Shown in pieces: positions 7,901 to 56,300 of a DNA stretch of 64,000 nucleotides. The stretch is taken from contig JAWMAR010000825.1 of NCBI GenBank assembly GCA_036785375.1, positions 248,001-312,000 of the forward strand, read 5' to 3'. Source of the DNA: Leucoraja ocellata (taxonomy: Eukaryota). The notes beneath the pieces are model-generated. The model was not told the DNA's origin. It saw only the letters and a program-made list of their open reading frames with translations, and ran no database searches. The number at the start of each line of letters is the position of its first letter. Positions within the stretch are counted from its first letter, which is position 1. A program made the translations under genes and the position numbers.

Positions 7901-10900
7901 AGGTGATCGACAATCTATACAAGCCCACTAACAAACCTATATTTGCCATTGTGCATGTTTAAAAAAAAAATTCCAATTAAAATTGTTCTTGCCTGGGGTA
8001 AAATGGAAAACAGAGCTGGAAGGAGCCACTGAATCCTTTGCCAGATATCTGTTCAATCCATCCATTTTTTTCACATTTCTGCAGTGTTCTCTTCAACATG
8101 TGCACTGGAACAAATAATACAATACAATCAAAATATTATCGTTGAAATTCACATGTGTTTTGTTGAATTAAGGTACCAATGATGTTTGCTTTTGTAGAAA
8201 ATATGACAATTATTTCAATCATTTCCTCTCACGGGCACAGGTTAAATACACCATGCCCATTCAAAAAACAGGCGAGATATAATTTGGAATATTGTGCACC
8301 TTTTAATACTCCCATGTCAATAATGAAATTCCGGCCCTGACTGACCTGCTGAGTTACCAGTGTTCTAACTAGTACAGGAGTCACTGCCTCAAAAAGGCAG
8401 CCAGCTTCGTCGGAGACCCACATAACCTTGGCCACAGGGAGAGGGTTTTGACCCAAAACGTCACCTATTTATTTTCTCCAGAGATGCCGTGCGATTGTGC
8501 GCCGAAGCGGAGTTCGCGCTAAGTGCGCACTAAGTTTGCGCGTTACATCATTTACGTCATGCTTACCAATCAGCTGGACGGGAGGCGGACCAACTGAATT
8601 TGGGCGTCGCACGGCGACGTCATCGCGCAATGTCACGCCGGGCAGTGACGTCATCACGCAACGCCACGCGCTAGGGGTACGCCGTCAAGACGCTGCGTAC
8701 GATCGCAATGCACCTGCGTGCCAACAGGCCGTTGGCGCGCGAGGATTTCGACCACTGCAAAAAGTTCGGAGCCCCGTGCGATGTTGGGACCAGCCCCGCA
8801 CAACTCCGCACTTCTAAGTGCCCGTACGCCTCAAGCGACCACGAGGTCGCGTAATTTGCGAGCCAAGGTCGCGTAAGTGGGACAGGCCCTTTACTCCAGC
8901 ATTTTGTCTATCCACCATGGTCATACTCACTTCACTCTTGCCATCGGGAAGAAGGTATTCGAGCCTGAAAACTGTAACATCCAGGTTCAGGAGCAGCTTC
9001 TTCCCTACAACCATCAACCATATTAAACATTGCAACCTCCAAATAAGCTCCAAACTACAGACTTGGGGGTATTGTTTTTGTATTTGCACTATTATTGTTT
9101 GCTTGTTTTTATATACATTTCCAGAGTACTATGTTTACATATCTGTTGTGCTGCTGCAAGTAAGAATCTCATTGTTCTGTTCCAGGACATATGACAATAA
9201 AACTCTCTCTCTCTCTCTCCATTTGTGACACAGTTTGATGTTGATGGAGCACACAAACCCTGATCAGTGTGGTGGGGGATCTTTTACAAAGTAAAATTTA
9301 GGAGAACTGTAATAATTCAGACATAAACACATTATTTATTTTGCCTTTAAAACCAATCAATGCCTCACCCCCTAGATTTCCAATTTCTTCCATCATTAGA
9401 GTTCCTCATTTCAAGACAATTTATTTTCTTATTAAAGACTGTCATTTTCCACCCAAGAGTTCTGCATCAAAGTACCAAACTTCTGACAGTTAATCCTAGA
9501 CATTTTGCCGACTGTTTCACTTCTCACTCAGAGGTTCAGCCTAAAGAATCTGAACTAGGTTGGGCCCAGCCCAGAAAAGGCAATTCCATTCATTTTGATG
9601 TTGAGGAAATGATTCAGTCTGCAACTCAAAGCACACCGCTTTCACAATTAAATTAACAGTTTCCAGAAGAGTGTGGAAAAATTGAATCTCAGACAATTAA
9701 ATGATTAGCTTTTTAGTAAGCAAATATAAACGAAGGGCAATAAAGACAATGTCTGACTTACTCTGGAAATTCGAATTGGTTGCAGGAACTTTCTCCAAAA
9801 CATATTTTTTAAGAGCTGTGGTTGAACAGGTTTTTGGTTCATTCATGGCAGTTATAGCACTTAGAATTGCATCCTCAAATGGACCCCCACTTAACAATGG
9901 CTTGTCTCCAGTCTTTTTAAGCTGCAACAGAAGATGCAAGCAGTAAGTCAAAAAACTTTCTAAGTTATATCACAAGTGGAGCTATGGTGTAAATGTTTCT
10001 ATATGTTTGTTATGCATATTATGTTACCGCTACCAATATCAGGTCAACAGGATGGTTCTACACAGCCCACCTCAAATGGCAGGCTGTTAAGACCCATGTG
10101 CATACATTTTCTACCAGATATTTCTGGGAGCAAGTAGGAATAACTGTTCATGGTTAAATAATTCAAGCCAACCAGTTAAAAAAAATGTAATTTGTTCTTC
10201 TTTTGTCCTCAAATAATTGACACAAATCTATGTATTAGGTAGTTGAAACAGATACTGTGAGCATTACAAAATGCAACACAGTACATTTGTCCACAAACAT
10301 TCTGACGACGTTTGAAGCCATAGCCCACGCTGAACTGGCTGATAAAAGTGTGCGTGTCAATGAATACCAGAAATATTAAAAAATTAAGTCATACTATTTC
10401 AAGATTTAAAAAAATAAGCAGGTAATTATATTGAACATTATCTAAAATCTAAGGTAGACAATCTTTCCATTTTCCTCAGAGCTGCTCCCCATTTGAAATG
10501 GAATCCCCAAATCTACACAAGTACAACCAGAACCACATTCAGCTCCTATATTCACGAATGCAATGCAGATGTTTCCACTTCATCACCAAATATGGACACA
10601 ATTGAACCTCAATGGATCTTTATGACTGCTGTGCATATCCCCGATTGTCAGCTGTAATTTGGTGTTCATTGTAGCCTAACCCCCCAAAAGAGATGCATTT
10701 CAATGTTTTATGCACTTTAGTAGTCATTTGTCAATTTCCTTTACTCCCAAGTGAATCCTTGAGATGAGATAAATTAAAGTGACAGATGAGATTTACATTT
10801 TAAAAGATTCCCCTGGGATCAAAACTCTCAGATAACTTCCAAAGGATATGTAAAATTCACTTTAATACCCATTCACTCACATACCCAAATTGAAAATGAT

Positions 10901-13900
10901 CCCACCCCTCTATTCTTAACATAGCTAGTATTAGTAGTACTTACCTGGAACGTCCCCGTTGCTCCCTTGCCAGTGATCTGCTCCAACTGACCCTTATCTA
11001 CAGCTCTTTGCAAAGCCTGTTTAAGTAAATAGGCCCTGCAATTTCAGCACACACAAAATAATCTTCAATGGTAGATAAACCAAGCCATCAAAAAATGAAA
11101 AAAAAACATCAACACCTTAAAGAATTAATATTTTATTCAACCAAATGGTCGACCTGTCGCACGAGGCCTGGTCCCCCAACGAAAAACCCGTTTCCCCAAC
11201 GCAATATTGCACCAGTAACCCGTAGTCATCAATGGAGGCGTGGTACCCCAACTGAACCCATTCCCGAACGTAAGATTCCAGCACTCCCCTGCCTCCCTCA
11301 GCACTGGACTTTAAAAAAGAATCCCAATTCCACTTCCCTGCCAGCCGCAGCAGATCCAATTGCAGATTCGCCCTCCCCCTCCCCTCCTGTTGAAGGACTT
11401 GCTGTGACATCCCATTGAGGTGAAAAGTTCAGAGTGTTCCTGTCTTGCAACTTCGTATCAATGTGTGTTGGAAGCTAGCAGGAAGGATTTTAACAGTAAA
11501 AATCCTGTTAAATTTGGCTTTTATTAAAGCTTTAATCATCAATAATGTGAAATATAGCATCAAATCTTAAGCGAACCTGATTACGACGTGGAGGGCAAAA
11601 ATGCGAGTCAGAATATATAAAAATGTAAGCGCTAGCGAGTAGCGTTTTGAGGAAGATACAAAACACATACAGACATACATACAAATTGGAGAAGCCAATG
11701 TTCACACCGCTGGGGTGTAAATTACCCAAGCTAAATATGAGGTTCTGTTCCTCCAATTTGCGGTGGACCGCACTCTGGCCATGGAGGAGGCCCAGGACAG
11801 AAAGGTTAGATTCGGAATGGGAAGGGGAGTTGAATTGCTGAGCCACCGGGAGATCAGGCTGGTTATTGCGAACTGAGTGGAGGTGTGTGAAGCGATCGCC
11901 AAGCCTGCACTTGGTCTCACTGAGGTTGATCATACGCTGAATAATCCCACCAAATTGTGGTATATATCATGCCTTGATTGATGAATATGTTTAATTTGTG
12001 ACTTTATTTGAAGCAGAAATAATATGTGAATGCTTCATTGAACATAATTCCGACTACGCACTTCGTCCGAGCACATTATCGCACTCGTCATGCAAGCCGT
12101 CTTAAATGACCATCTAAACTGTCATTTGGCAACCTAAATAGCTTCCGAGGTTGTCCGGCTGGCAACAGGGAAAAAAAAGTTAAGTGAGAGCCTTGTGTGT
12201 GCATACAACTTTCTAGTGTCTTTCTCCTAGTCTGACTAACATTTAACGTAGAAATCTATTCTTCTTTCTTTGCCTCTGCTCACCTTCCTAGAAATCAATT
12301 TACTTGGGAGAACTTATTCAATCAGTTAGGATTACTCTCATTATTTTTATCTGGACAAATTACCAGAACTGGTAACTTTAGTGCACATGATGACAAATCT
12401 TCAAGAATGAAAAGCAGAACATGCTATAAAAATCCATAGGCTTACAGGCTGAATCACAAAGTAGGGATTTAGAGTGCTTTACAATGGTTTTAGTCTTGGA
12501 CAAAGATGCAAACATAAATTTTCCATACCTGCTTTCAGCATTCAGTTTGGGGTAATATTGAAGAAGATACTTCTTGATAAGACTGTATGATGCCTCCTTA
12601 GGTTCACACAGCTTTGTGAATGCCAGTGGTAGAGCATCCTCCAGTTTTACTGGCTGTTCCATTGGTCCTGATGAGGTGGTTTTCTATTAAAATAAGAATA
12701 CTGGGGTTTATGGAAAATAAAAAATTATTTGAAAAACCTCAATCCATTGAGGTTGTCTGTGCAGAGGTACAATATTCAATTCAATTCAATTTATTTATTA
12801 ATTCAATATGCAAGATTTAGGCGAAAAGCATACCGATATACTGAATAAAGGGTCAATACAACTATTAGCTAAGGTAGCAGAGGAGTGCTGCTAAGAAATA
12901 TTGGGGGAAAAAATTAGAAGGTTATTCTGCTAATGCCTTGGAGAAAGTCTATTTTTTATTGCGAAATAGAGTGGTTATCAGGCAGAATCAGATGGGAAAC
13001 AGCGACAGTATTTGCAGTTGGACAGTACCATGAAAACCAAACTCAATACTTTTTTCGGAGCATGATGATATGGTTGAACGTTCTCTATTATTAATCAATA
13101 TTTGATGCTTTATCCTTGATCATATTAAGAGAATGTTTTAGATTAGTGGTCAGCTAGGACAAAAAATTATATGTGCTAGTGTTCAGGTTTGGACTGGCCT
13201 TGATCAGGTCAAGTTATAGTTTTATAACCAAGCAGACTCTTGCATAGCAAACCATAAACAGGACTATATACCAACAATAACTGGTCCAAAAGACTATTCA
13301 AAAAGCTATAGTCACTTTACAATCAGGTGCATCACAATAACATTCACCTTCAGCTAATAAGGTTTTGACTGAGAATGACTGTACAGAAATTGTATCTGCA
13401 CAGATTGTTTCTGCTCTAATTAAAACTTTACATTTTCTGAAGCAAATTTGGGATGTTGATGCAATGGTAAACCCTGACTACAAAATACCCATGGGCAATG
13501 AACAAATGATTTATCATGAATATATCCAATACCTTTTTGTCCTGTTTCGATTTATGCGATTGTTTCCCTGCATTTGACACAACCACAAAACTTCCAGAGG
13601 CACCCTTTCCCTTCACCTGAAGAACAGGATGAACTCAAGATTAATCCTTTCGTGTAATGGACTGTACGTCGTGCGACAGCTTAGAGTTCAAAGCAACATT
13701 ATATATTTCCAAGGAAAACATTTATCCTGGTACCTTGAATCAAGTAAAAAAAGTTTAAAACATTTCTTTATAATGTTAATGACTATACAAAATAACCCAT
13801 TACATGCAATCTTTGTACAGGGGCATAAAGTTACATTGAAATTCAGACTATGTTGAATTCAAAATGAAACACACCAATATTGGCTCTATAGAACTTGTCC

Positions 13901-19423: not shown

Positions 19424-20264
19424 TTTTACACTAACACAATGAACGACCTGTTGAAGAAGTTACAATATATAGGTTCAACCAAAATGGTAGTTTAATAGTA
19501 CTTCATAACAGAGATGGACAGGGAACAGAAGGGCTTGGACACTTTGGCACAATGTTGTGATGGAATTGCTACCAACCATTATAAAGCGGTAAATCCCACA
19601 TTTTCACATTATGCACACCATTTAGATGTACAACTGAAGTTTGTAAATGAGCACATTTTTTAGATAACATTAAAAAAAAATCTAATATCAAATGAACTGT
19701 GTTGAATTGTCAAAGAATGGACCAAACTTTAAATTGAGAAATGCTTCTCAATCGTTAGTCAGAATTACCTATTTAATAGACGTGGGCAACCTTTTAAAAT
19801 CTCACAAAATCTGGAAATGAATGAAATCTTCAATTGCATCAGATGACAATGCGATAACAGAGGCACATTTATCATTATAGAGCTGAGAGCCTGTGCACAA
19901 GGTTTAATTTCATTTACAGCATTCAGATCACAGCATGCGGCCAAGATATACCTTGTGAAAATTATGGAGGGAAAAGGGAGACAACACAGATGCAAAAATA
20001 CTTTGTGTTGAGGAAGTCAGAAATATAGCTGTCAATTTAGCAGAGCATCAGATAGTTACAAACAAGAGAGACTTATTTCTCAATTAGTTAGAGTTACACA
20101 GCATGGAAGCACAAGAGACTGAAGATGCTGGAATCATGAGCAAAAAAAAACAAAGTACTAGAGTAACTCAGTGGGTCAGGCAGCATCTGTGGATGGAATG
20201 GACTGGCGATGTTTCTGATGCCCATTCCCTCCATAGAATGCAGCTTGACCTGCTGTGTTCCGAG

Positions 20265-20840: not shown

Positions 20841-22044
20841 TTTGCTCACCAAAACTACATGCAGCTCCAGTTCCCTGTTCACCTGGTTAAACCTTAACTC
20901 TGTGCCAAAGTGGCCCAGGAAGTTAATCCAATGCATTAACTGTTACAAACTGGGTTTCTAAAAAAAATATAAGGCTCACCACTACCTTTATAAGCCAAAC
21001 TTTCCAGTTAGGCCCATATCCCAAGAATGAACAATAAAGACTCAGTGCGAAGTGTAGTGTTTAGCAATAATGCAAGTTTAGCAATAAAAAGTACTAACAC
21101 CCCATATAAAGTTGCTATATAAGCAAATCATATTTAAGCACCAAACATCAATCAATTAAACAACATAATTTGTTAGTTGCGACTTCAAATTTGATTTAAA
21201 TTAAATTAAAATTTCTATCCAGGTAGGCTCGTGCAATTTAAACCATTCAAATAAATTAATTTAGGAACTACTTTAAACTGTTTGGTACTTTGCCTGCTCC
21301 CTGTGAAATTTACTATTTTAATTAAAGAAATATACACAACTGGAGGAAGGTTAACATGTGTATTTGTGATTTTTACATAATTAGAAAACTATCATTAGGT
21401 TTGCAGCGATAGTCAATATGAAACATGTTCTCTGATTGATAACAAATATTAGCAGCACTTACATATTGTCAACATGTGAAATATGGTTTACTAGCTCTAT
21501 GTTGCTTCCCAGTGTTCTCAATGGTGTTTGGTTTTATAACAATCAGTATCGTGAAAACGGTACTGGTAAACCTCACATATTTTTTAGGCTAATAAAGAGA
21601 AAACATCAGCAGCATTTCTGCACGTGCATCAGATGCTGGTTTACAAAATAAACACAAAGTGCTGGAGGAACTCCATGACTTAGGCAGCATCTCTGGAGAA
21701 CATGGATAGGTAACATTTCACATCAGGGCCCTTCTTCAGACTAATTTTTATCTAGAATTGCTACTAATCTCGAATATATTTGGTCCATCATTATCCTGGA
21801 TTAGTCCAATAATAGTACTGGTTGATGGCAACAAGGAAATGAACAATGTTTGTTTTTGTAAACCAGCATCCGCAGTTCCTCGTTTCTTCAAAAACGTTAC
21901 ATTATTGGGAATAATGGGAACTTGAGGAAACATTTAATTATTTTTCATGGTTATCAGTTTTCTGAATATGAGTATGTGAATTTATAACACCAAATATGAA
22001 TAGTAAACAAAAACAAGTTACCCACAGAAAACGGGAAGGGATGT

Positions 22045-22835: not shown

Positions 22836-23099
22836 TTTTTAAACTTTTACTTTTTGACAAAGAAACAAAATTTCAGTGCACCAAATACTTCAAAAACATA
22901 ATGGCACATTGTAAGTGAATGAGGTGACTATTAGGAATATTGTTTGGAACCAGTGGATATGTGCATTCATAGCAAAAGGAACCAGTGCATTAATTTACAA
23001 AAATAAAGCTTCTAAAAGCTTGCAGTGTGTAGTGTTGGCTGTCCAGTTTAACGCAAAGTACCGGGAATAGTCTTAGATGTGTCTGGGCTTTTAGAGGGG

Positions 23100-23900
23100 A
23101 GGGGCAGGTTAATCCAGGGGATGGAGGGAGTCCCTAGTTGCTGCGAAGGGACGCACCCACCGATCCAGCGGCCCCTTGACAAAAGCAACAAACGTTCTCC
23201 ATTCAAACTCGGCAAAAATAAGCAACTACGGGTCCCCCGCCCTCTTCAGTCACACCTTGAACTGGCTGTGGCCGCACACAGCGCCAGGCTCCGCACAGGT
23301 ACAAGTAAGCGAGCAGCGGGCGGGCCAGTGAAGAGCGGCGGACGGTGGCTCCCAATCCTCCTCCACATCAAAGCCCCAACATCAAAATGGCGTATTCGCG
23401 AAAAAATTCCCACAAACATTGTAAGCCTCAGGACTCCGCTGCCCACAGCTGTCGCCGAAACGCCCATTTAATCGGCCGCATGCTGCAGCGGTGCGCCCTG
23501 TGTTATTTGTGGAGGTTAACCGCTTACCTTGGCGGCCACCTTGCCCTCCACCTCCTCCCGCTGCGCCTCCAGCTCGGGCTCTGGCGCGTCTCCCCCCCCC
23601 CCTCCCACCACCAACCTGGCTCCCGCCGGAAAAGCCGTCACCCAACCGGCGCCGCGCGAGACACATTCAAACAAAAACAAAAAAATACACTCCTCCGAAT
23701 TACAAACCACCACCCTTGTACCAAACCAGTAAGAATGTCCTCGTCTCAAAATTATTTTAATATATGAAGTTTGGTGTTATTTCCTTTGAGCCGTTAAACC
23801 CCCCCCCCCCCCCCTTGTTTTCCCTCACAAACATGGCGACTAGGGGACAGAATGTCCCTCATAAAATGGCGACCACAACATTTGCCCCTCAAAGAATGCT
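23100..23900 (-). promoter_or_regulatory. CpG island / promoter and probable non-coding first exon of HP1BP3 (~23528-23660)
   Basis: Sharp rise in GC and CpG; strong donor AAG|gtaagc at 23526-23527; YY1-type (A)AAATGGCG / ACATGGCG motifs at 23383-23392, ~23830-23840 and 23863-23873. Confidence 0.75.
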
Positions 23901-24110
23901 GACCATGGGCATTTGCCCCTCACAGAATGCTGACCATGGGCATCTGCCCCTCACAGAATGCTGACCACGGGCATTTGCCCCTCACAGAATGCTGACCGCT
24001 GGCATTTGCCCCTCACAGAATGCTGACCATGGGCATTTGCCCCTCCCAGAATGCTGACCATGGTCCTTTGCCCCTCACAGAATGCTGACCATGGGCATTT
24101 GCCCATCACA
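23881..24110. repeat. 31-bp minisatellite, ~7.4 copies
   Basis: tttgcccctcacagaatgctgaccatgggca units at 23881, 23912, 23943, 23974, 24005, 24036, 24067 and 24098 (partial). Confidence 0.95.
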
Positions 24111-25340: not shown

Positions 25341-25659
25341 ACAGGAAAGTAGAAAGGAATTGCATAATATTTAAGAGACAATTGTACAGATACAAGGATA
25401 GGACACAAAATGCTGGAGTAACTCAGCGAGACAGGCAACATATCTAAGGAAGGGTCTCGACACAAAAAGCCACCTATTCCTCTCCAGAGATGCTGCCTGT
25501 CCTGCCAACACAGATACATGGATAGGATAGATTTAGAAGGTTAAGGGCCAAGCGCAGGCAAGTGGGACTAATGTAGATGGAGCATGTTCAGCGTGGGCAA
25601 GTTGGGCGGAAGTTGCCTGATTCCACAATGTATGACTTCATGAGATGCTGATTTACCCA

Positions 25660-26260
25660 AAAGGACACAAACGCTGGAGCAATTCAGCGGGTTAGCGAAA
25701 TTCCCTGGAGAACATGGATATGTGACGTCTTGTGTCGGGACCCACCTTCAGCCCATTGGGATGAGGGGTGGAAGAAAACTGGGAGGAGAGGCAGGCCAAA
25801 GTGTGGCAGGTAATAGATGGACACAGGTGATGTTTGATAGGCAGAAAGTTGAAACGAAGGCAAGAGATTAAAGTAGAAGGCGAGTCAAAAGGACTGAAGA
25901 GTTGCAAATTGTGAAGTTAGAGGAAGGAACATAGGGGAAGGGGCGAAATAGCTGTGAGCAGAGGGGCACGGGAGGGGAGGTTAGTTAGAGGTTACCTAAA
26001 ATTGGAGAATTCAATGTTCATATCAATGAGTTGTAATCTATCCAAGCAGAATACGAGGTGCTGTTCATCTAGTTTGCAAATGGCTTCACACTGGTGATGG
26101 AGGCGACTCAGGACAGAGAGGTCAGTTGGGAATGGGAATGGGAGTTAAATTGGTTAGTAACTGGGAGAAACAGTGGGCCTTAGCAGACTGAGCATGATTG
26201 TTCAATGCAACAGTTGTCGAGTCGATGCTTGGTGTTGCTGATGTACAGGATCACTGAATC
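25660..26260 (-). mobile_element. Penelope-like element 3' end (GIY-YIG tail, pyrimidine-rich UTR, terminal repeat)
   Basis: Minus strand encodes KLDEQHLVFCLDRLQLIDMNIEFSNF (homologous to 11680-11930), followed by the short repeat with a degenerate hammerhead-like core at ~25722-25751. Confidence 0.75.
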
Positions 26261-28029
26261 CAGTAGATGCAATCAGTACAGAGATGCTTGCTGCCTGACC
26301 CATTGAGTTACTCCAGCACTTTATATCCTTACAGGAAAATATTTGATGGGAAGCTTTCCATGTTTGGAGTACATTCTACCACAAAGAGAGTAAAGAACAA
26401 ATCCAAAATAAAAAAAAGTGTTAGAAACACTCCGCTGGCCAAGCAATATATGTGGATATTACTTTACGGCCAACTTTAAGGTCTGGGACAAAAACAAATG
26501 TTCCAAAATGTTTAAGTCTATCGTTTACTCAATACCGATCTCTCCAAACACTCTCTTCCCAATACTGATTAATCAAGCTGCACCAATACCAATGAAGAAT
26601 GAAATCAGAATGGATTCTGCAGAATAAATCAAGGATTTTATGTTGATGTTAGCGATAAGAGTTGCCTCCCTGTTTGCCGAATAAAGCCAAGGAACATTAC
26701 GGGGCAAAACTGCACTCTCTGGAACCATAACTTGCATCAAAAAAGACGGTTAGAGGTTGTCATGCATTCATCTCCAGGTTGCTACTGTAGGACTTCTTCA
26801 ACTGCTTCATCAATGTCCTTCATTCCATCACAAAGTCAGAGACGGGAAAGCCAGTTGCAAAACAACGCAGCCCATGCCTGCAAGTTGCAAGGTTGGACAG
26901 CATGGGCCAACAAATGACCAACAGCAATTATTCAATAAAATTGCCAAGAAATGACCCATCATCTCCAACAAGAGAGAATTAGTCACAGAATCATAGGGAA
27001 ATTGAGACTGATGCTCTTCAGCCAACCATCAATTCATCACCCATTGACACTAATCCCATTTTGTATTTGCTCCCATCAACTTTTTACACATCTTTGGAAT
27101 GTTGAAGAAAAATCGAGTACCCAGGGGAAACACACGATTACAGAGTAAACATGCAAAACGTGGATAGCACCCAAGGTCAGGTTTGAACCTGGCTCTCTTG
27201 CACAGGATAGCGATAGTTCCATGAGCTGTGCCACTGCATCTTGATGTTAACGGTTAATACTGTTAGTGAGTTCCTTATTTTAGGGGGGAGGGGGCAAGTT
27301 TAATCAGAAACGTCATTGACTTAGTCATAAATGCTATAAACAGAAATGCTTGGATACCGTGCAACGTGACGCACCTCCTGACTTCCCTGGATCTTCCTAC
27401 AAACTGCAAGGTACAACTTAGGAGTCTGATGTAATACTTTCTCCTTGGTGTAGAACTGCAGTATCCCAGTTTCAACCATAGAATAGAATACTTCCTAAAC
27501 TTGTGATCTCCCACACCAAGGAGAACGATAGCAGATGCACGGGACCTTGCTCATGGTCCCCTACAAACCAAATACCATCCTGAACTGGAATTATAATGTG
27601 ATTCTCTGTTGTAAATCCTGGAACATCTTACCTGACAATATTGTAGTAGGTACTTTCAACTAGTGGAATGTAATTGTTCACCACCATTTTTCTAAGAGCA
27701 TTTAGTGATGGGCATGAAATGCTGACCTTTGCTTGATGCTTACACCTGTAAATTAAGTTTTTTTTAAAAATTAGTTAGAGAATAAAATGGGATCGGTAGA
27801 TGCCACAATGGAGCTAGCATATAGCCATGCCAACTGTGCTCAAAACCTAAGCAAATTATCTCAAGCACTGGATTCTTCTTCCAACTACATCTTTCAAAGG
27901 GAAACATACAGAGTGCAACAAATAGTTCTCTGTATTGTAGCTCATCAGTTCCATAGAAAATGTCCACAATGACATAGAGGCAAATCAGACAGTGTCCAAG
28001 CTTATGAAAGGGGTATTCAGAAGCCTGAT

Positions 28030-28379: not shown

Positions 28380-29615
28380 TTCAAGCTTTTGCTCGATCGG
28401 AGCAGGGAGAAAGTGAAATGATTGGGATAGGACAAGTATTTGATTTAGTTGTTTGCTTTATTGAGGCAGCGTGAAGTATAAATTGAATCAATGGTGGGAA
28501 GTGTGGTCCGTAGGACTGGGCTACATTTACAACTCTGTGCAATTTCATGCAGTATTGTGCAGAGCTGTTCCCAAACCAAGCAGTGTTTTCTATGGTGCAT
28601 CTATAGAATTTCGAGTCTTGCAAACATACCAAATTTCCTCAGGAAGTAGAGGCATTGGTGTGCCTAATTAGCTGTCGCATCAATGTCAAGAGTCCTGAAG
28701 TTGATAAACTAGCTCATTTGTTTTACTGATATTGAGGGGGAAGTTATTGTTCTGAACGGTGTTACTATGATCTCTATCTGGTTTCTTAAGGATTAGGTTT
28801 ATTATTGTCACCTTTACCAAGGTACAGTGAAATGCTGTGTGTTGCATGCTATCCAATCAAATAATCCTAATCAAAGATAGACACAAAAAGCTGGAGTAAC
28901 TCAGCGGGCCAGGCATCTCTGGAGAGGAGGAATGGGTGATGTTTCAGGTCGAGGCCCTTCTTCAGACTCTAATCAAATTCTGTATCATCATTGTTTGTGA
29001 TCTGGCCCATCACAGTGGTGTCATCTGCAGAATTCTAGATGAAGTTAGAGCTGAATGTGGTTGTACAGTCGTGAGTGCACAGGGAGTAGCATTGGGGACT
29101 TACATGCAAAGCACCAATATTGAGAATTATTGTGAGGAGGTGTTGTCACCCATCCTCAGTGATTGAGGTCTGTGGGTCAGAAAGTCGAAGATCCAGTGAC
29201 AGAGGGGGGAGTTGATTCCTACGTCCTGGAGTTTGGAGATGAGTCTGGATGGGATTGTGGTGTTGAAGGCAGAGTTATGTTTGATAAATAGGAGTTGAAA
29301 ACATGTGTTATTTAGGTGGTCCAGTGATTAATTTACGACCAGGAAGATGGTGTCGGCTGTAGACCAGTCGTAACGATAAGAGAACTGCAGTGGATCAAAG
29401 TTGACTGGGAGTGCCATCACCAGTCTCTTGAAGCACTTTATGATGGTGGATGTCAGAGTCACTGGACAGTAGTCATTAGCGCACATTATCTTACCTTTCT
29501 TTGGCATTGAGATGATAGCGATCTTCTTGAAGTGGACGGGGACATCAGCATTGAGTAGTGAGAGGTTAATAGTGTCTGCCAGCTAATCAACACCGGTCCT
29601 GAGGATGTGCTCAGT
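28380..29615 (-). mobile_element. Rex1/Babar-like LINE, degenerate RT with nested insertions
   Basis: NDYCPVTLTSTIIKCFKRL, ADDTTVMGQI and FYRCTIE...WFGNSSAQ...LHRVV motifs. Confidence 0.75.
28876..28968 (-). mobile_element. 93-bp Penelope-derived short repeat with hammerhead-like core
   Basis: Flanked by the 9-bp direct repeat CTAATCAAA (28867-28875, 28969-28977); minus strand reads CTGAAGA AGGGCCTCGACCT GAAACATC. Confidence 0.7.
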
Positions 29616-29679: not shown

Positions 29680-32390
29680 AATAGGAGCAGGCTCTTCTGT
29701 AGTTTCAATAGGATCATGGCTGATCCAATATTACTCACGTCCACTTTCCAGACCAGTCATTGATTCCTTTACTGATTATAAATCTATCAGTATCATCCTC
29801 AACCCAACAGCTCCCTGTGCCAAGGACTACTAATCCTCAAGAAATTCCTCATCTCAATCTTAATTCTGGCATCATGCCATCGGGCTCTAGATTCTCCCAT
29901 GAGAGGAAATATCTTCTCACCATTTACCCTGATTAGTCCCCTAAGAATCTTATACTTTTCAATAATATTGGCTCAAATCTTTCTGAACTCCAACAAAAAG
30001 TGTTCCAACCTGTTTAACATTTCCTCACAGGACAATGCAACCTCCTCGAATGAAATCTTATCTTTACTTAAAGATGGGGAGCAATATCATATGCAGAACT
30101 CTAGATATGATCTTTTATATGCATTGTACAGTTGCACTAAGATATACCGACTTTTACACTCCAACCTACCTGAAATATGGATCAACGTTCCAGATGTCTA
30201 CGTGACCAGATGCATTTGTGTACCTGTTTTGTCTTTCGTGCACAAGGATCCCTAAATATCTTTGAGCTTTCTGAAAGGTTTTCTATGTGGATCTTGTGCA
30301 GGCAGATGTGTTTAGTTTATATTGGCATCATGTTTGGACCAGACATTGTGGGCCAAAAGGCCTGTTCCTGTGCTGTTCTATTTAAATATTGTTGTTTCTT
30401 CCAAAATGAAATAAGAATTTTCTTACATTATGCATTATTTGCCAACTTTTTTCCCCCTCACCTAACAATAACTTTCTGTAGGTACACAAAAATGCTGGAG
30501 AAACTCAGCGGGTGAGGCAGCATCTCTGAAGCGAAGGAAGTTGTTCCGTAACTTTCTGTAAGCTGTTTCTGACTCCATGCAACTTGTCTTCCCATCTTTT
30601 CTTATATCATTCTGGCTATCATGCATTCACATTCTCCCTCCAAGTCATCAGTATATATAGTAACCCACTGCAGTCTCAGCACTGATCCCTGTGGTACTCT
30701 CCCAGTCATGGTTGCCAATCTGAAAATGATGCTTCTATTCCTGCTTGCTGCTTCCTGCACCCGAGGCAACTTATAATTCATGGTTATGCAGATTCTGCTT
30801 GATTTATGATTTTAAATCATGTTTTGCACAAACATTTTGGGCCGAATTATGATATTCCAAATGTACTGGTTATTTTCCTAATAACCCGATTATGAAGAAA
30901 GATAGCATCTCCACCAATTTGTGGGAATCTATGGACCATGAACACCTGTGGCCAATGCACTTGGGAGCACAGAGAAGACTTGTGTGAATTACTGAATTGC
31001 CAGTCTCATGTGTGGAAGAATTTGGGGTTCAGACTTTGGCTTCATTAGCCACCTCAACTTGAAAATGGAGGTGGTTATTCTTAATGTGGAATATTGATGC
31101 CAAAGGAAAAGGAGCAGAAAGAGGAGGAAGTGGAGGAGGAATAACAGGAGAAAACGAGGAAGAATTGATTTTTGCAACATTTTTCACCCCAATATGCAAG
31201 GCATGATTGCCTGCTTTTTACTTCCATCCTTTTTGAGGCGTTGTAATGGCAGTTTTCCCATCTTCTGGCACATGTCCAAACTTGAAGGACTTATGGAACA
31301 TTTAAGCTAATACATGCAACAGCATTGCAGGCACTTTCATAGAATGTAACATTATTGGAACCTGGGGACTTATCAACTTTTCACTTCATTAGTTTACCTA
31401 ATACAATTTCTCTAGTGATGGTATTTAATTCCTCCCTGGCATCATTTAGTATTACTAGGATATTCACAATATCATTCACTTTAAAGATTGATGCAACATT
31501 TCTGCTTAACTCCTCTACCATCCCTCATTTTCCATAATTATCACCCCTTCCTGTTTATGTACTTCAGTCTTTTTCATCATTTTTATGTTCCTTGTTAGCT
31601 TAACCTCAGTTTTTTTTCATTGTCCTCCTTTGCTGAATGCAAATCATCCCAGTCTTCATGTCTTCCCCCAACCTTTGCCTCCTTATACAACGTATTTCAA
31701 CAATATCCTTCTTCTTTTCCTTGGATAGTTTCTCCGTCATTAGAATTGTTCCGTTACTGGGATATATTTCTGCTGAGTATCCCGAGTTACCGCCAAACAT
31801 GTCTGCCACTGCTTTCCTGCCATCCTACTTGCTCATCTCTTGGCCCTGCTCACTTTTGCCAACTCTATTCTAATTTTATTGTAATTTCCCATTTGCAAAT
31901 TGGTTATTTTGCATTCTCAATAGAGTATATAATATAATCTGATCTCGGCAATCTTTGAAATCTTTTACTTTGAGGTACATTATTAAACATGCCACATCAC
32001 CCATGGCAGATTCTGAATCGCCTGTTCCTTCGTTGGCTCCATAATAGATTACTCCAGGAAATTATCCCAGATGCATTCTCTGAATTTATTTTCATAGCTA
32101 CCCTTCCACTTTGATTAACCCAATCTAAAGATGATCCAAGTCTCCCATATTTATTGTTCAGCTCCTTTTACACACTCCCATTATTTGTTGATAAACATTC
32201 TAGCAGCATGGCTACTGTTTGGACATCAAAACAGTTTACTGGATTTAACATTATCTAAGCCTAGCCTAATTATTTATTTTCTTATTAACTGCTAACCCAC
32301 CATCTCTTTCATCCCATCTGAATTTTCAAATATTTCTGAATATTGAGTCCCCATCTTTGATCGCCTTGCAACCATGTTTCCACAATGGCT
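29680..32390 (-). mobile_element. Old, long CR1-like LINE remnant with younger insertions
   Basis: Degenerate reverse-complement similarity to the CR1 3' end near 29700-30250 and to RT/EN-region sequence further along; heavily decayed. Confidence 0.5.
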
Positions 32391-33000
32391 ATCAGATCAT
32401 ACTACTGAGCAAAAAATAAACTGCTGGAGGAACTCAGTGGATCAGGCAGCATCTGTGGAGGGAAATGGACAGATGATGTTTTCGGTCGAGACCTTTCTTC
32501 AGACTTCAGTCACATACAGGACGGTAATTGTATTATCTTTTTGATTTTTCTTGAAGGTTACTGGAAAAACATTTATTCAAAGTCTAACAATAATAATTGA
32601 ACACATGGCCTAAAAAAATGTTCCATAATTTTGTATAAACTGATAAATGGCAAACGTACCTCAAGAGAACCACAGCTGCTTGTTATTTTATAATTACTTC
32701 ACAGACCACCAGAATATTTGATAGGATAACCTGGAAGATCACCAAATTTCACAATTGCTGATCAATTGCATTCTCATTAGGATCTCCTATATTATATTAT
32801 CAATTAAAAATGCAATTGCAGTATACACCAGGAAAGCTTTACCTAAATAAATTATTTGAAAAAAAGTGCCCCGAAGCAGCTGCTCTAAAACTCAACAACT
32901 TTTAATAATGGCATCTTTAAGATAACTTTTCACTGAAATGGTTGTAAATTGTTAAAGGAAATCCACCACTGCTGACCGTTCTAATAGCAGATGAATCTAG

Positions 33001-34920: not shown

Positions 34921-35508
34921 CTTTCACAGCGTGGGGAGTCTGTGCCAGGGTAAAGTTGCGGGGAGGGCAGGAGTGTTGAGAAGGAGGGGTCGGGGATAAT
35001 GCTAGTAACTCACCGCTGCCGCAGCTCTCCGGGCGCGGAGCCACTGCATTGTAGCCGGGGATAGAAACAGCTCAGGAGGCAGCGAGCGGCTGCCGGGACC
35101 CGATAGCAGAACTGGCCGCCACTTCAGCACCTTCTGCCGGCCCGCTTACCTCTGGCAGTGCTCTCCGTCTGAACACCTCTTACCTGCTGCTCGCATATAA
35201 GCCGCTTCCTGCAAATCCTTAAATTCCCACAGCTGAGTAACCTCAATCTCGCTGTCGGAATTTAAGGATTTGCGGGAAGTGGCTGACATGAGTGAGGCCA
35301 GCGAGCGGCAGGAGAGAGTTTTTTCGACAGAGAGCTGCCAGAGCTGAGCTGGGGCCGGCAGAAGGCGCTGAAGTAGCTCGCAGCCACCCGAGCTACTTCT
35401 CCTCTCCGTGCATGTGGGTTACTGGCATGATCCAGATCCCCTCCTTCACAACGCTCCTGCCCTCCCAGCAACTTTACCCCGGGCCAGACTCCCCAAACGT
35501 TGTGAAAG
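34921..35508. mobile_element. GC-rich foldback (palindromic) element
   Basis: Arms pair along their length, e.g. ctttcaca...gggtaaagttgc / gcaactttaccc...tgtgaaag and gcaaatccttaaattcc / ggaatttaaggatttgc. Confidence 0.75.
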
Positions 35509-36505: not shown

Positions 36506-39214
36506 CTACCTGGTTAATCCTTTCGTTTTGACTAATGACATGAAAATGGAGAACCTTGACGGAAATAAACAAATTCAATCATTAAATAATCCAGTAAAAT
36601 ACGAGTTATTACCAGAATTTGTAAATTACCATTATGTTGGTAATTTATCCGTTTTAAGGTCTTATACATTACAATTTTGAAATCATACTAGTTATGGTGT
36701 GGAAAGATGCCTGGAAAATGGGGTGTTGAAAATATTTGGTTCCTGTAAAATAGGTTAATGAGATAATCGCTGACCAGTTCAGTCCAATATTAATGGGTGG
36801 TGGGGGAAGGAAGAAACTTTCTACCTAGGAGATACGGTAGAAACTGCAGATGCTGCAATCTTGAAAACATGAAGAGCCGGAAGAACTCGGGTCAGGCAGT
36901 ATCCTTCGATGAATGGACAGGCAATGTTTAGTGGGGGGTGGGAACCCTTCTTCATGCTGTCTGACCCGTTGAGCTCTTGTGGTACTAGATGTTTTGTTCA
37001 AACTTTCTACCTCATTAAATAGTTAGAATAAAAAATGATTAATGATTGAGGTAATGTAATTAATAATATGTTATTTTTTCTAATCCTGTCTACTTGGAAT
37101 GAAGGACTTCATTTATGCATTGTACCTCGAGAAATAGGGGCTACTCTGGAAAATACACTGGGGATTTAATCCAGAGTAACGTTTGTTGAGTAAATGGTTA
37201 AGTAATCATTGACATTGGTTGGGTTTTAGTAAGCAGAATACATAGGTTTTATATAAATTACAACACAGTCAGTTGGGATTTTTTAAGTGCAGTAAATTAC
37301 TATCTATAATGCATTGCCCAAAATGATGTTGGAGGTAATTGCCAATTAATAGATTTAACTTTATTTAACAATTATGGTGTTAATTACTTTATACAAGCTG
37401 AATTTGTTTTAAGATACATCATTTAATTGCACACCGTTTTCAAAGTAGTGAATTATACTTTCACTCTTAAAACGATACTGTCAGAAAGCAGGCTGGCCTT
37501 TCAGACCTCATCACTCACAACATGCTATGCTGTTTGGAGCAGCCACGGCATGAAACCTCAAGGTTATTGTCAGCTGCAGAAGGTAATATTGCAAGCAGCA
37601 GAACACACCTGCATGGGCTAGGTCAAAAAGCAATTTGGCCCAATAATGTGTTTCTATCCACAAAAAGCAGGATTGAAAAACTGAATGCCTTCCATCTATT
37701 TCTGTTTCTAAATTACTTTTAAAACGAGTTATAAATTTGAAATTATACTTAATTTATCATTAGAGTACACTAATGTCACAACACTGGAGGGTGATCAGCC
37801 CATTGTGTCTACGTCTGTAGACAAATTTCTCAGCCTAATCCCATAATGGGATACTGAATCATTTGCCACGTAGATCACTTTTCTTCAACTTCCCAAATCC
37901 AAGTGCTTCTTAAATGTGATAAACAGTTTCACTACCACCGTTTGAAGGAGTTAACTCTAAACTCTCACTATTGGTTGGAATAAATCTCTTCCCAAAATCA
38001 TCTCACAAATCCTTATATAGTTTACTTATAATTTTGCTCGTTAGTTTTTGATCCTTCTGCAAAGGAAAATAGCCCTCCTTACAATATCTGGATCCCCTTG
38101 TGATTTTACAAAAGTCAATAAAATTTGTCCTCAGCCTTCTCTCTTCCAAAAAAAACCTCTGCCTTTCCAATGTTTCCTCAAAGCTGAAAAGTCCTGGAAA
38201 ATCTGCACAACACATTGTGCAACCATTTTATTGACCTCCCCTGCAACCTCTAAATGTCTGCGGACTTGCACATCTATCAGTGCCCCAAATACATTTAATA
38301 TGCACTGCTTTGTTGCATCTCACACTTTTCGGGATCAGTCCAAATATATTTTCCGGGAGTTAAAGGCTTTCCTCCTGTCAGCCACTTAACCAATTTTTAT
38401 CATTTGGAAGCTTTCTAATCCTCTACTTTGTTTAGAACATTAATACATTATTAAAAAGAACCAATTGAGCCCTGTCAAAACCCTTCCCTGTTACAAAAAC
38501 ACCCTTCACCTACTATTTCCTTCCACTGTGCTATTATCTGTTCAAATTTGTCACTCCCCCTTGGACATTATGAGCACTTATTCCTTTCATTGGCCCGCAA
38601 GCAGAGCCTTGTTAAAACCTTTGCCAAATTCCATGTTGATTTATTTCCACTTTCATCGACACTTACCTCCTTAGAAAATACTCTCAAGTTATTTACAATA
38701 CCTTCCCTAACAAATCTGTCCTGCTACTGGTTAATCTATGTCATTCTAAACTGAACATTTATATTGTCTGTCAGAATTAATTCTAGTTATTTGCTTAATT
38801 CTTAATAACTGGCATGTAATTACTTCATTATTTGGCAGCGCAGTCCTTTAGCACCTATCCTTTAGCACCATTCCGGTGGCCCAATCGGAGTAAAAATGTA
38901 AAAATTTACCAGTTTTGTATTCAAGGACCAACAGAATCCATATTCTTCCATTTACCAAATTCAAAATCATTTTATCATATGCACAGGATATGCAATTAAA
39001 AGCACACCCTGGCTTGTAAATTCATGGTTGTTTCATAACCTCCCTATCATCACATATAAACACCGACTAGAATCCCTCTTTAAATTCACCTGCTTTCCAA
39101 ATTCTCCTCAAAGACTTGACTTCTTTCATTTATCGTGTATGTTTTCCAATGTCTTAATTGAAAGCATAAGGTATATGTTTTCTGAAAGTTACAACTATTG
39201 AAAGAAAAGTCATA

Positions 39215-39700
39215 TGTGATAGCAGAATTAGGCCATTTGGCCCATTAAGTCTACTCCATCATTCAATTATGGCTGTTCTATCCCTCCCTCCTAACCCAAT
39301 TCTTCTGCCTTCTTCCCGCAACCCCTGACACCCGTACTAATCAAGAATCTTTCTGTGGTTACACAAAAAAGCTGGAGAAACTCAGCGGGTGCAGCAGCAT
39401 CTATGGAGCGAAGGAAATAGGAAATCTTTCTGTCTTGGCCGTAAAAATGTCCAGTGACTTGGCCTCCACAGTCCTCTGTTACAAAGAATTCCACAGATTC
39501 ACCATCCTCTGAAGAAATAAATTCCTCCTCATCTCCTTCCTAAAGGAATGCCCTTTTAATTCTGAGGCTATGACATCTAGACTTTCCCACTAGTGGAAAC
39601 ATGGACACTATCCAAGCCTTTCACTATTCGGTAAGTTTCAATGAGGTTTCCCCTCATTCTTCTAAACTCCAGCAGGTACAGGCCCAGTGCCATCAAATAC
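39215..39700 (-). mobile_element. CR1-like LINE 3' fragment with a nested short repeat
   Basis: Reverse complement of the 22400-22830 type sequence. Confidence 0.7.
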
Positions 39701-40089: not shown

Positions 40090-40515
40090 ACAACCAGACT
40101 TACCCATCAACATCCATGCCAGTTCCTATTGGAGGCACAACGACCCCTACTAGCTGGAATATGAAGCATCACCAACACTTTCCATTGGATCTCCACGGTT
40201 TCCATTTACCCACCTTATCTCCCTTGGTTGTCCCATACTTGTCCTTCCTTTCCCATCAGATTTCATCATCTGCAGTCCCTGGTTACCTCCACCTATCACT
40301 TCCCAGCCTGTCGTTTTCACCCCACCAGACTCCATCCACCAATTCATCTTTCTCAATTGGACCCACCAATCATGTCAGCTCTTGCCCCACCTCATCACCT
40401 CTTTTTACTCGTTATCCCTCCACCCCTTGAGCCCAGATGCAGGGTCTCAACCCAAAACATTGATTGCCCACCACTCTGGCCTGTTGGGTTCCTTCAGCAG
40501 TTTGGTTTTGCTCCA
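40090..40515 (+). mobile_element. Degenerate Penelope-like 3' end
   Basis: Pyrimidine-rich UTR homologous to the reverse complement of 25760-25990, followed by agggtctcaacccaaaacatt. Confidence 0.5.
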
Positions 40516-41464
40516 ATTCTCGGCAAGCTTAACAATTTCTTCTCATTGTGATTGACTACCTTGCCTCCATCCTCTGCCAAATTTGAGTTTATTCAAAATT
40601 CTGTTGCCCATAACCTTCCAACACCCAAATCCTTTCCACCATCTACAAGACTCAAGTTAGTATGAGAGAACTCTTCACATGCCTGAATGACCACAGATCC
40701 AACAGCAATTGGGAAATGTAATGCTATCCAGGACAAATCAGTCCCTTGGATTAGACACCATCATTAAGACAGAATGGTGGCAAACTGTACTGCACTGGTT
40801 ACTCATTCAGGGCAATCTAATGGCAGCACAAGTTGATTTCCCTCCAAGTTGCATACCATCGTACTGTCATTCTTTCATCACCACTGGGCTTTAAACCAGT
40901 AAGTACCCCCCAAAGAACATTATTAGAGAACCAACAGCTGAGTTGTGGTGGCTACAGTGCTTTCCATGTGGTGACTTCCTCACCGTCTCCTCACATCCCC
41001 ATAAACTAACAAAGAAGCTCATGTGTTTCACTGATTTTGAAATGTCTCAAGGACACTAAAGGTACTAAATTAATTCAAATTCACTTCTAAAGAGTTTGAA
41101 AGTCTGCACATCCATTCATTTAGTTTACTTTAACAATACACTCTTCTAACCTCAAAGAATTCTTTCAAAATCGGCAGACAAAATTTGTCTTTTATAAACT
41201 CGTTCTGGCCTTCTTTGGTTAATCTATTTTTTCTAAGTAGCAAACATATCGTACATTTTGATGGATAAAATACCTTTTTACGATTACGTAATTTTCAAAC
41301 ATATTTTCACACCTTCTCAGGATTACAAGAATCCCAGAACAATATAATGTACAAAACTTGATTTTCAAGACAACACAATGAACAAATGCTTAGATTTTAG
41401 AAATGTCCTCAGTGTCTTGCAAAACACACCATCCAAGAGCAAATCAGATGAAGTTGTGAACCTG

Positions 41465-53300: not shown

Positions 53301-56300
53301 AACATTGTAAGGATATCAATAATGACCAGATAATCGATTTGAGTTGCTTTAGTTTAGTTGAGGGATAATTATTGGCTAGGGCACAAGGAAAAATCTCCCT
53401 GTTCTCCTCCCAATTATATTTTTGGACTTTGATAAGAAAGGCAAATCGCTCAATTTTAATGCAGTTAGGTGATCTCCCTCAGTAATGCACTGGGGCATTG
53501 TTAAGATTTTGTGTTCAGTGGGACTTGAAATTAGAATCTTCAGACTCAGAGGCGAGAATGCCAATACTGCAAACAATGATCACACCTGTAATCATTAATT
53601 AAAATAACCAAATGCAAAGTTAGAATTGGTAGGACAAGCAACAATTGTATAGCAGTATAATAAAGCTAAAATATGATTGGAAGTTTCTCATTGATCAAAT
53701 GCCATAAAACATCAGAGATAAATAATGTATTCTGGATTTAGAAATTATAATCAAAACACCTTTGAATAATTTTATGACAATATAGTTTTACTTTGGTTCA
53801 GTTTAACATTACAGAAACTGTATTCCGTGTTTGCTTAATCCTTAGTGATCAAGATCACAATAAACTACATATGGAAACAATGAAAATTTGTCGCTACTTT
53901 TTCAACACATCTTGTTAAATGAGATTCAGACTCGGCTTCAATTGACTGAAGTCTTAGAAGGTGATTGTTTGATTTTTTTGGTTTGCTATTTGACATGCAT
54001 GAAAACCTGACTCTATGTTTACCAATCTCTGAACTAAGTACAGAAAAATCTATACACAGGGAATCTCTGCTTACCTGAAGCAAAATGCCCTTTCTGCCCT
54101 TAATTACATTAGATTAACAAAATTTAAATTAACACACCAATATTATTAAATGAAAGAGTCAACAGTATCAACAGAATTATAGATTACAAACTAGTGCAGG
54201 AAAGGTCACTGAAAAATCAAGTACAGACGCTCCAACAAAATCTGAATACGTTTGGGTTTTGTTTCAATTTACGTTTTTTAAATGTAATAGGCACGAGTAA
54301 AAATTACTTTGGTTTGCATATTTAAGTATCAGCAATGACTTTCATTTACAAATGCAAGCATGCATCCTGTTAGTTGATGGATTTATATATTTAGCCATTA
54401 TGCAGGAAAGATATGCATTTTACATTGTTGCAACTACAAAAGAGGTAACCAAACACAAGTACAATATTTGTCTGGGTGATAGTCAACTAGTTTAATGATC
54501 AATAATAAGTTACCCTTAGTATAAATTTAACATTATAGTCAATGTAAGAAATTGCCACACAATGGTTTAATCTTATTGGTTATAAAGTAAAACAAACTTA
54601 AAACAAAAATAGAAAATGCTTAAAACATTCCGATCAATTGGCTTCTGTGTCTGTTTTAGTTCAACACATTTTAATCAGTTTAGGGGAAAGGTCATCAACC
54701 TGAACTGTCAACTACAATTCTTTCTCCAAAGATGCTGCCTAGCCTGCTGACGATTTCCTGTATCTGCAATATTTTGCTTTTTAAAAATTCAACCTACTTC
54801 TACCCAATCAAAGATTTGCTCATTGCTGGCTTTGTCTTCGATTATAAGTTTTTCTAGCCACTTGTTCAGTTCTTCGGCAGAGAGCTCCATTTTTGAAAGT
54901 GCTTCAGTAGGACCAGAAACATCTGATATGGTAAACTCCAATTTCTGCAAAGGAATTGCAAAACTAATATTAATTATCCCTGTCAACACAATTAAAACAT
55001 GACTTTTCACAGTAGTAATATCTCCACCTAGCCTGCCTATTTGGTTTGAGGTTGGAATTCAGAAAAATGACCAATGATTTTATTTGTCAGGAGCGTCACC
55101 TTTACAAAAGCTAGACTCAAGACATAAACATGGTTGCAAACCGCAACGCTCTAATCTTATTGCTACAGTGATACATCTGTAACTGTTGATAATTCAACAA
55201 AGGAGTTAAAAATAAAAAATGCTGAACAGACAGAGCCTGGTTCTAGAACCATACAATTTAAACCAATACAATGTTATTAAAGCAGAATAGGATACCATGG
55301 AGGTAAAACAAGGTCAATAACAGTTTCATGATCCAGTACTATTATTCTAGTCCTTTTCACAAACCTGGGTAATCTGAATTATGAAATTTTAGTTGTTGTA
55401 AAATATTATAGCAATGAATGATATATTAAAATGCATGACAACTGTACAATAATTTCATTTCATTCTTCACATTTACAACTATTCTGATTACAATTATAAA
55501 TTGCAGGTAAATGGAGACTTTTATATATAGAATCAAACATCAGAGAAGACAGGTCCATTAACTCATCATGTTCATGTCGCCCACCAGGTCACCACTCACA
55601 CTAATTCCATTTGTAAGTGTTGGGCCACAGCCTTCTATGCATTTGAAATTCAAGTGCTTGGCCCAGGTCCTTTTCAAGATGTTGTAAGAATACCTGCTTC
55701 TGTCAGCTTTTCAGGCAGTGTGTTCTAGACAGTAACCACCCTCTGGGTAAAAACAAAAGTTCCTCAGATCCCCTTTAAATCTTTAACTCCTTGCTTATTC
55801 CCCAGGCTTTATAACTCAGTTCCTGTTTTTGCAAATAGTCAAAGTGCAGGCCTTTTTAAAAACCATTACTGAAATTACTTAATATTCCTAAATATTTCTT
55901 ACAAGTTTTATTCCAGGTCGAGAGAGACATTTCTGACAATGAGCGGCCTAAGATGACAACAACAAAGGTGAGACAGGTAGAGGATAGTGGCCAACAGGTT
56001 GCGCACTGCACAATGGCTGAGAAGGCAAAAGACGACTGCAGTAGGGAGAGATAACCAACCGCCATGTAGTTTCCGTAGAGTCTCACGGAGACTGTCTCCG
56101 TCAAGGACTGTGTAGTGGCTGATCATGTATCATTCTCCCCATGTTAAAAGATGTATGCACAGGCATCCCACCTGAAACATGAAGCTAATCATACTTGTTT
56201 TGGAGTGATTGCCGATGATGATAAGCTCACAACAGTGTTGTGCTATTATGAGGCTTATTAACTATTGCAGTGCACTTCCCCACCTCCCCATCAAGATAAA

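Follow-up and report, generated by a model that had tools for sequence, protein, structure and literature searches.

The stretch of DNA analysed here, called the window in the following, comprises 64,000 nucleotides of the skate Leucoraja ocellata (contig C825, positions 248001-312000, of an assembly of 3.44 Gb). It carries, on the minus strand throughout, the coding exons of HP1BP3 at 4631-19423, mostly 90-100% identical to the Amblyraja radiata protein, together with EIF4G3-type exons (W2 and MA3) at 47223-47399 and 60950-61144. A non-repeat, CpG-rich stretch at 23000-23900 with a minus-strand donor-like site near 23.5 kb is probably the promoter and first exon of HP1BP3; a short tandem repeat with units of about 30 bp lies next to it, near 23900-24100. 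A second non-repeat stretch rich in GC and CpG, located between the two genes at 35000-36000, has donor-like sites, an internal inverted repeat and a weak miRNA-like match at 35201-35283. At 63580-63657 a hairpin with purine and pyrimidine arms gave several weak matches to miRNA families, all of them far under the curated scores.

An earlier note on this DNA, made from its letters, had described a repeat of about 90-120 bp in about a dozen copies. A profile made from the window copies yielded 19 matches at E<=1 in the window, among them all ten places named there, and none in the reversed window. The 9-bp TSD ascribed to the focal copy was confirmed as an exact direct repeat on both sides of the insert (Table 1). 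Because the last bases of the TSD resemble the element's own 3' sequence, the right end of this copy is read as a microhomology junction. The focal copy retains CUGAAGA and GAAA of a hammerhead ribozyme; its helix II has a G-U closing pair and a C/A mismatch, and ACAU replaces the ACGU palindrome.

The note had further placed several copies, in the transcribed sense, in introns of HP1BP3 and EIF4G3. Three copies do lie within the coding spans, but only the one at 56.8 kb is sense, those at 8.4 kb and 54.7 kb being antisense. Two further sense copies, at 20.1 and 21.7 kb, probably fall in HP1BP3 intron 1, a placement that relies on the CpG-rich, non-repeat stretch with the donor-like site near 23.5 kb, while the focal copy is probably intergenic. 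The sense copy at 56.8 kb misses the first C of the core and the copy at 8.4 kb is without the core; since no intact sense copy is present inside either gene, there is no support for an influence of the repeat on the RNA of HP1BP3 or EIF4G3.

Table 1. Copies and fragments of the repeat and of its parent element in the window
Feature	Position	Strand	Remarks
pLTR fragment from +11, without CUGA core	8436..8489	+	HP1BP3 intron, antisense
Endonuclease and 3' UTR region fragment of the same PLE	11683..11929	-	
pLTR fragment with tail, core lost	20113..20231	-	probably HP1BP3 intron 1, sense (inferred)
pLTR copy starting at +1, with broken helix II	21620..21745	-	probably HP1BP3 intron 1, sense (inferred)
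Two pLTR fragments arranged head to head	25401..25505	.	25401-25450 minus, 25443-25505 plus
Old pLTR copy, subfamily C-like, mutated core	25643..25758	-	
Endonuclease-region fragment and pLTR fragment	25999..26328	.	endonuclease region 25999-26250 minus, pLTR 26278-26328 plus
9-bp TSD, left copy	28867..28875	.	overlaps element-like 3' sequence (microhomology)
Focal solo pLTR copy	28876..28968	-	unit +1 to about +97, subfamily A, 92% like consensus, without tail
Decayed minimal hammerhead of focal copy	28938..28965	-	core retained; helix II and ACGU palindrome mutated
9-bp TSD, right copy	28969..28977	.	
Subfamily B pLTR fragment without hammerhead	30469..30567	-	
pLTR copy from +1, mutated hammerhead	32399..32512	-	
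Old diverged pLTR copy with tail	36835..36959	-	
Subfamily B pLTR fragment without hammerhead	39347..39441	-	
Old diverged pLTR copy	40434..40527	+	
Old pLTR copy, mutated core	54676..54788	+	EIF4G3 intron, antisense
Young pLTR copy with tail, first core C missing	56707..56841	-	EIF4G3 intron, sense; +5 to +135, 95% like consensus

The abundance of the repeat was estimated from 55 stretches of 10 kb at round coordinates of large contigs (550 kb). This sample gave 237 matches and the reversed control none, which extrapolates to about 1.5 million fragments in the genome. The exact hammerhead motif was present 90,901 times in the assembly, haplotype duplicates included, with no match of the control. 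Because the window has a second copy on contig C23, which we attribute to haplotype duplicates, assembly counts may be inflated up to twofold. Near-identical loci also recur 0.1-1 Mb apart on one contig (e.g. C69, C93 and C101), which suggests that both haplotypes were joined in one contig and that counts are inflated there, too. In the literature covered, with most subscription papers and Repbase outside its scope, no description of this repeat in skates was found; the supplements of PMC4209133 and bioRxiv 10.64898/2026.07.22.740005 may list related motifs.

For the analysis of copy ends the A before GUCUGAAGA was numbered +1, so that the hammerhead cut site follows +31. Copies with at least 55 aligned bases and 80% identity numbered 196, and 187 after removal of 9 from tandem arrays. 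The unit was covered from +6 or earlier in 116 of the 187 copies, i.e. in 64 solos, 23 copies with an inverted partner and 29 running into the 3' UTR, some copies of the last kind having been counted as solo. The remaining 71 start further in, just 4 of them at +31 to +33. The element was still matched by 53 of 59 solos at +4, by 35 at +1 and by 23 at -1, and among exact young copies holding +1, 22,127 of 39,686 continue into the upstream ATC. The 5' edge at +1 is a preferred but not an obligatory start. On the 3' side the copies fall into two groups, 77 ending at +87-99 and 68 at +126-135, about 37 nt from one another. A TSD of at least 7 bp surrounded 14 of 56 solos compared to 1.9% in controls. 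Most copies are dispersed solos, not retrozymes. Three subfamilies were distinguished, whose consensuses differ at 22 positions and have an identical hammerhead core and ACGU. The identity of the core fits selection on an active parent.

The parent was recognised from longer copies. Several of the 30 best genomic matches extend upstream into sequence whose translations contain a GIY-YIG domain, a CX4CxxC linker and RT motifs, and full-length copies start with the same pLTR unit (L160-L162, L166, L167 and L174), so that the pLTR stands at both ends as in EN+ PLEs. From these two observations we conclude that the repeat, about 135 bp long, represents the pLTR and tail of a Penelope-like element (PLE) of Neptune type; the Penelope origin proposed earlier was thereby borne out. 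A 313-aa piece had 215 relatives, which carry PF26215, mostly PF00078 and in part PF01541; the closest named one is from Chiloscyllium (60%). Five homologs align over the whole length of the decayed elements (about 3.5 kb), consistent with a single ORF of RT and C-terminal GIY-YIG, whose first ATG lies about 170 nt in from the 5' end of full-length copies. A CX2-5CxxC Zn-finger linker between RT and EN is ascribed to Neptune and shared with Nematis in PMC8557442, so the CX4CxxC linker of the skate element is common to both. The optional tail of 30-40 bp and adjacent inverted 5' copies of such elements were likewise present, 56 of the 187 copies having an inverted partner. None of the copies retrieved was an intact autonomous one, and a Pfam search of decayed ORF pieces returned a weak GIY-YIG match alone (E=0.069), with none for two longer pieces.

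A stop at +61-63 interrupts the pLTR in most copies (+63 is A in 90 of 140), which led us to discard a reading frame across it. Two pairs of loci, L161/L168 and L164/L165, are short internally deleted elements, in which about 450 nt of the ORF start are joined directly to the pLTR from +1. L161/L168 have an extra pLTR before the ORF start, and the internally deleted elements are possible template jumps.

The family consensus has the features published for the minimal type I hammerhead of PLEs, namely CUGANGA, an extra base, G10.1-C11.1, GAAA, a palindromic 15.2-16.2 and UH, in agreement with the motif first noticed in the window. Of the composite core drawn up at that time, CUGAAGA, one extra A, a helix II of 4-5 bp, GAAA and ACGU recur in the family consensus. 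Its final ACU does not, as +34 is C in 119 of 130 copies and the T derives from the copy at 56.8 kb. Helix I is therefore 2 bp instead of 4-5 bp, the pair +1/+34 being A/C in 61 of 65 copies. As described in PMC4209133, PLE motifs share with that of the skate the type I core, the extra base before helix II, G10.1-C11.1 and the palindromic ACGU without loop 3; they, too, are mostly single, dispersed and tied to truncated PLEs, with pairs on opposite strands, and showed no activity as monomers and low activity as dimers. According to the same source, helix I has 4-5 bp in Schistosoma and, like in the skate, 2 bp in a D. virilis variant; the helix II of 4-5 bp sets the skate motif apart from the motifs given there, and so does its number, against about 4,000 in coelacanth and about 9,000 in Xenopus.

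In the window itself a minimal-hammerhead descriptor had no match, compared to 12 in 400 kb of sampled genome and none in each of 10 shuffles, and an Rfam scan gave 21 matches at E<=10, none of them a hammerhead. Intact motifs were found in 20 of 103 inserted copies covering the hammerhead. CpG sites of the core had changed in 19-28% of 122 copies and non-core CpG in 16-20%; A had changed in 15 of 366 core and 43 of 715 non-core cases (p=0.20) with two subfamily-variable positions left out, and the core appears better conserved (p=3e-6) when these are kept in. With these positions left out the core is no better conserved than the rest, and the inserted copies decay neutrally with no sign of selection. 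In a check for covariation, helix II showed one-sided wobble changes only among the three close subfamilies; a metagenome pattern scan for distant relatives, meant to extend this check, returned no matches. A core no better conserved and, as far as these subfamilies show, a helix II without covariation are two of the three observations that the earlier note had named as refuting its inference, the third being the absence of cleavage. Three real copies folded no better than shuffles (z 0.2-1.5), and in foldings of subfamilies A and B a competing hairpin displaced helix II. Judged by their sequence, the hammerheads of the window are decayed and likely inactive.

RNA was explored in four raw-read runs (poly(A) and single-cell short reads), which were assigned by species label and may stem from a close relative, with a 586-bp copy spanning 3' UTR, pLTR and ORF start as target. 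The unit was carried by 0.26-0.44% of the reads. Depth reached about 44,000 on the unit versus about 250 or less in the ORF, and 92-96% of the unit-bearing reads run on into unlike flanks, which fits host transcripts carrying stubs. RNA ends after GUC, predicted for a cleaving ribozyme, did not appear: read starts or ends did not pile up at the cut site or anywhere else on the copy, fragmented short reads being a weak test of cleavage. Read starts at +1 are unreadable because the target copy has a deletion in the core.

Taken together, we are fairly confident that a Neptune-type PLE supplied the repeat as its terminal repeat, that the short copies are likely early-ending products of the element's own RT and that the known minimal hammerhead, decayed in the window, probably did not set their ends. 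In the mechanism that we propose the endonuclease of the element would nick the target, and RT would begin at either of two internal sites of the uncut RNA, which define the tail. It would then stop at or near +1, probably the 5' end of the RNA, leaving an insert of 93-135 bp with a variable TSD. Two such events would produce a head-to-head pair, and some of these pairs might subsequently have been recopied whole as non-autonomous units, mostly nearby and with no need of a working hammerhead. The bases around +1 may resemble the initiator consensus. An initiator-like sequence has been reported for rotifer pLTRs (PMC3846280) and an internal promoter for the D. virilis pLTR (PMC2377424).

The two groups of 3' ends and the head-to-head pairs fit the model of internal RT starts of the anole PLE PAc, in which RT starts inside the RNA at two sites defining the tail and both strands are cut and extended; hammerhead mutants are reported to insert normally, with no reads ending at the cut site (PMC11167929). 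As far as described in PMC8557442 and PMC11167929, EN+ PLEs such as PAc have RT, Zn-finger linker, C-terminal GIY-YIG, pLTRs and inverted 5' copies in common with the skate element, and PAc in addition the 30-40-bp tail from two RT start sites and the missing RNA ends at the cut site. The skate element differs from them by an extreme excess of pLTR-only stubs and by a concentration of 5' ends at the motif's leading edge. Furthermore, its ORF starts after the tail, while that of PAc starts inside the hammerhead (PMC11167929).

The earlier inference of a non-autonomous, ribozyme-bearing retroelement amounts to an independent SINE- or retrozyme-like family, whose hammerhead-processed dimers or circles would be copied in trans by the PLE protein. 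Discrete TSD-flanked inserts of 93-135 bp, the 90,901 intact motifs, the share of reads with the unit and the existence of tandem derivatives would suit it. Yet we regard such a family as improbable. Copy ends do not fit the cut site, and every subfamily includes copies extending into the 3' UTR (15, 10 and 4 of the 29). Tandems are rare, with 400 matches for a second core 60-90 nt downstream as opposed to 90,901 cores, and for a dimer of the 44-bp unit described below the double-hammerhead fold reached -4.5 kcal/mol, far from the best fold of -28.0 kcal/mol. The reads run mostly into host flanks, and a large offshoot has no core at its junction. For the bulk of the copies the inference hence fails, as they run into the 3' UTR and form few tandems; an offshoot elsewhere in the genome is truly non-autonomous, but its shared junction is without the ribozyme core. 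RNA processing at the front of the hammerhead, whether through splicing to an acceptor at CAG or through a permuted cut immediately ahead of +1, is equally unlikely to have made the 5' edge: although a pyrimidine-rich stretch ending in CAG precedes the core, a donor-like site follows about 33 nt after the tail and a D. virilis intron is described to end at helix I (PMC4209133), the donor-to-acceptor junction was found just 4 times in the assembly, one with element sequence upstream, and the donor-like site overlaps the first ATG. Splicing or back-splicing as the main route was rejected on these 4 matches, and the permuted cut because the upstream sequence differs among subfamilies and the permuted helix is not conserved.

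The 400 matches for a second core revealed arrays of 44-bp units on contig C33. At the spacings searched, head-to-tail units with a motif in each are not a feature of the family at large; they are one of the C33 offshoot. Between 6.1 and 11.0 Mb of C33, 17 array loci were retrieved (L197-L213), 16 with the 44-bp unit, which is the hammerhead alone, and one with a 74-bp variant. The arrays comprise 2-10 units on both strands and are located inside head-to-head insertions with different flanks; candidate TSDs of 8-15 bp, each different, were recognised at six loci or more. L206 holds an additional array whose downstream flank is the same as that of L209. Of the array units 34 of 81 are intact. 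Arrays of 43-49 bp derived from other subfamilies were seen on C7 and C12 (L214-L216), and all rejoin at +1.

Metazoan non-LTR retrozymes, as presented in PMC7229834 and bioRxiv 10.64898/2026.07.22.740005, share with the skate family an origin from the PLE pLTR and with the C33 offshoot head-to-tail units with a type I motif in each. A canonical type I hammerhead in a unit of 150-450 bp, typical of retrozymes, was not found; the skate has a minimal motif in 44-bp units or in solos of 93-135 bp, and the bulk of its family consists of dispersed solos. The C33 unit is below the range of 51-972 bp reported in the bioRxiv survey, which includes one chondrichthyan and gives 51 bp as the shortest unit, and it differs from retrozymes also by its partial intactness and its place inside a fold-back insertion.

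Many C33 array insertions share one head-to-head junction without a CUGA core. A junction 20-mer of this kind had 3,599 exact copies in the assembly. Among the first 100 matches listed of these, 63 were at C1 20.1-23.9 Mb and 37 on C5 from 14.3 Mb onwards; C1 0-20.1 Mb and C2-C4, for which the expectation was 93, had none. Fold-back composites (L217-L268) were seen at C1 20.1-23.9 Mb, C5 14.3-19.4 Mb and C23 8.1-11.8 Mb; on its left the C1 cluster ends abruptly at 20.1 Mb, which may reflect a rearrangement or a join made in assembly. Forty copies retrieved from C1 and C5 are composite, having acquired units from next to them as well as 66-bp tandems and sequence foreign to the element. A TSD of at least 8 bp was called in 8 of the 24 bounded copies, 16 of the 40 running off their locus, and these calls are unreliable. 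The fold-back units have probably been copied as wholes, with neither ORF nor core, and every variant is centred on a region of its own. What is new here is a head-to-head derivative without the CUGA core at its junction that recurs 3,599 times, is clustered in multi-Mb regions and has region-specific sub-variants.

The RNA of a retroelement leaves the locus at which it was made, so that the copies are expected to be dispersed. The clusters suggest a short-range spread, unusual for an element copied through RNA. We tentatively favour local hopping with occasional long jumps: the Penelope machinery may copy fold-back units that have neither ORF nor hammerhead from RNA that has not left its site of synthesis, and insert them within a few Mb of the source, so that region-specific lineages would spread along chromosomes and gain flanks and neighbours, one of them now forming the shortest hammerhead tandem so far (44 bp). 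An almost equally probable explanation, which concerns the clustered offshoot alone, is local gene conversion among pre-existing head-to-head copies of B type, or a preference for GC-rich domains combined with assembly duplicates. This explanation stays alive because the clusters are GC-rich with twice the usual density of ordinary units (GC 0.47 and 8.2 units per 10 kb in 8 cluster stretches against 0.43 and 4.3 in 55 stretches), and because two pairs among 12 C1-marker loci share both flanks; these loci are also without clear TSDs. Moreover, older variants are common to the clusters, as 54 derived 16-mer sets were multi-region and 24 single-region (permutation mean 3.1, maximum 9), the latter figure being inflated since the C33 loci were picked by their marker. 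A marker expected to centre on C1 centred on C23.

On the other hand, one shared RNA pool should mix the variants among receptive domains, and no mixing was seen. One captured-piece marker had 39 of 68 matches at C1 20.1-22.0 Mb and 1 on C5, and the terminal array unit 29 of 55 on C33 6.1-11.0 Mb. The hybrid junction was found 73 times on C5, 21 times on C1 and 6 times on C23 among 100 matches listed of 1,678. A second captured piece had 59 matches at C23 8.1-11.8 Mb, 5 on C1 and none on C5 or C33 among 100 listed of 230, and the C33 array junction was on C33 in 98 of 100 listed of 158. A C5 marker gave 2 matches only and was uninformative. The rival explanation is further opposed by the density of junction copies, of which up to 46 were counted in 1.17 Mb (about 1 per 25 kb), whereas the 550-kb sample had 4 B-B pairs among 23 pairs, by the B-type of 18 of 19 typed arm ends on C33 and by the even spread of ordinary young copies along C1. 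The junction copies on C33 have separate TSDs and flanks.

Adineta vaga Penelope elements, as described in PMC3846280, have in common with the skate that the pLTR alone suffices for mobilisation in trans and that head-to-head junctions are palindromic; the skate differs by thousands of ORF-less fold-back units with one junction and by their variant-specific clustering at the Mb scale. Cut-and-paste DNA transposons also place new copies near related copies, and PMC12477816 reserves local hopping for them in contrast to copy-and-paste elements; the skate units differ from DNA transposons by variable TSDs of 8-16 bp and PLE-type ends. In literature represented mainly by titles and abstracts, plus PMC12477816 and PMC8969392, no report on local hopping of PLEs or their derivatives was found.

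The repeat of the window is itself ordinary, a known PLE motif in decayed and locally inert copies, and the interest lies in the offshoot. If local hopping holds, the hammerhead would be dispensable for mobilisation in trans, and it would become apparent how retrozyme-like tandems begin. If the PLE protein loads onto RNA that has not yet left its gene and inserts close by, this would bear on how PLEs choose their templates and keep introns. The region-specific markers make local hopping testable with existing skate genomes.

Finally, a 66-bp tandem from subfamily C (+24 to +90, without the CUGA half) was observed at L045:6556-6937 and 9287-9641. It is also built into fold-back composites and is well covered by RNA reads.
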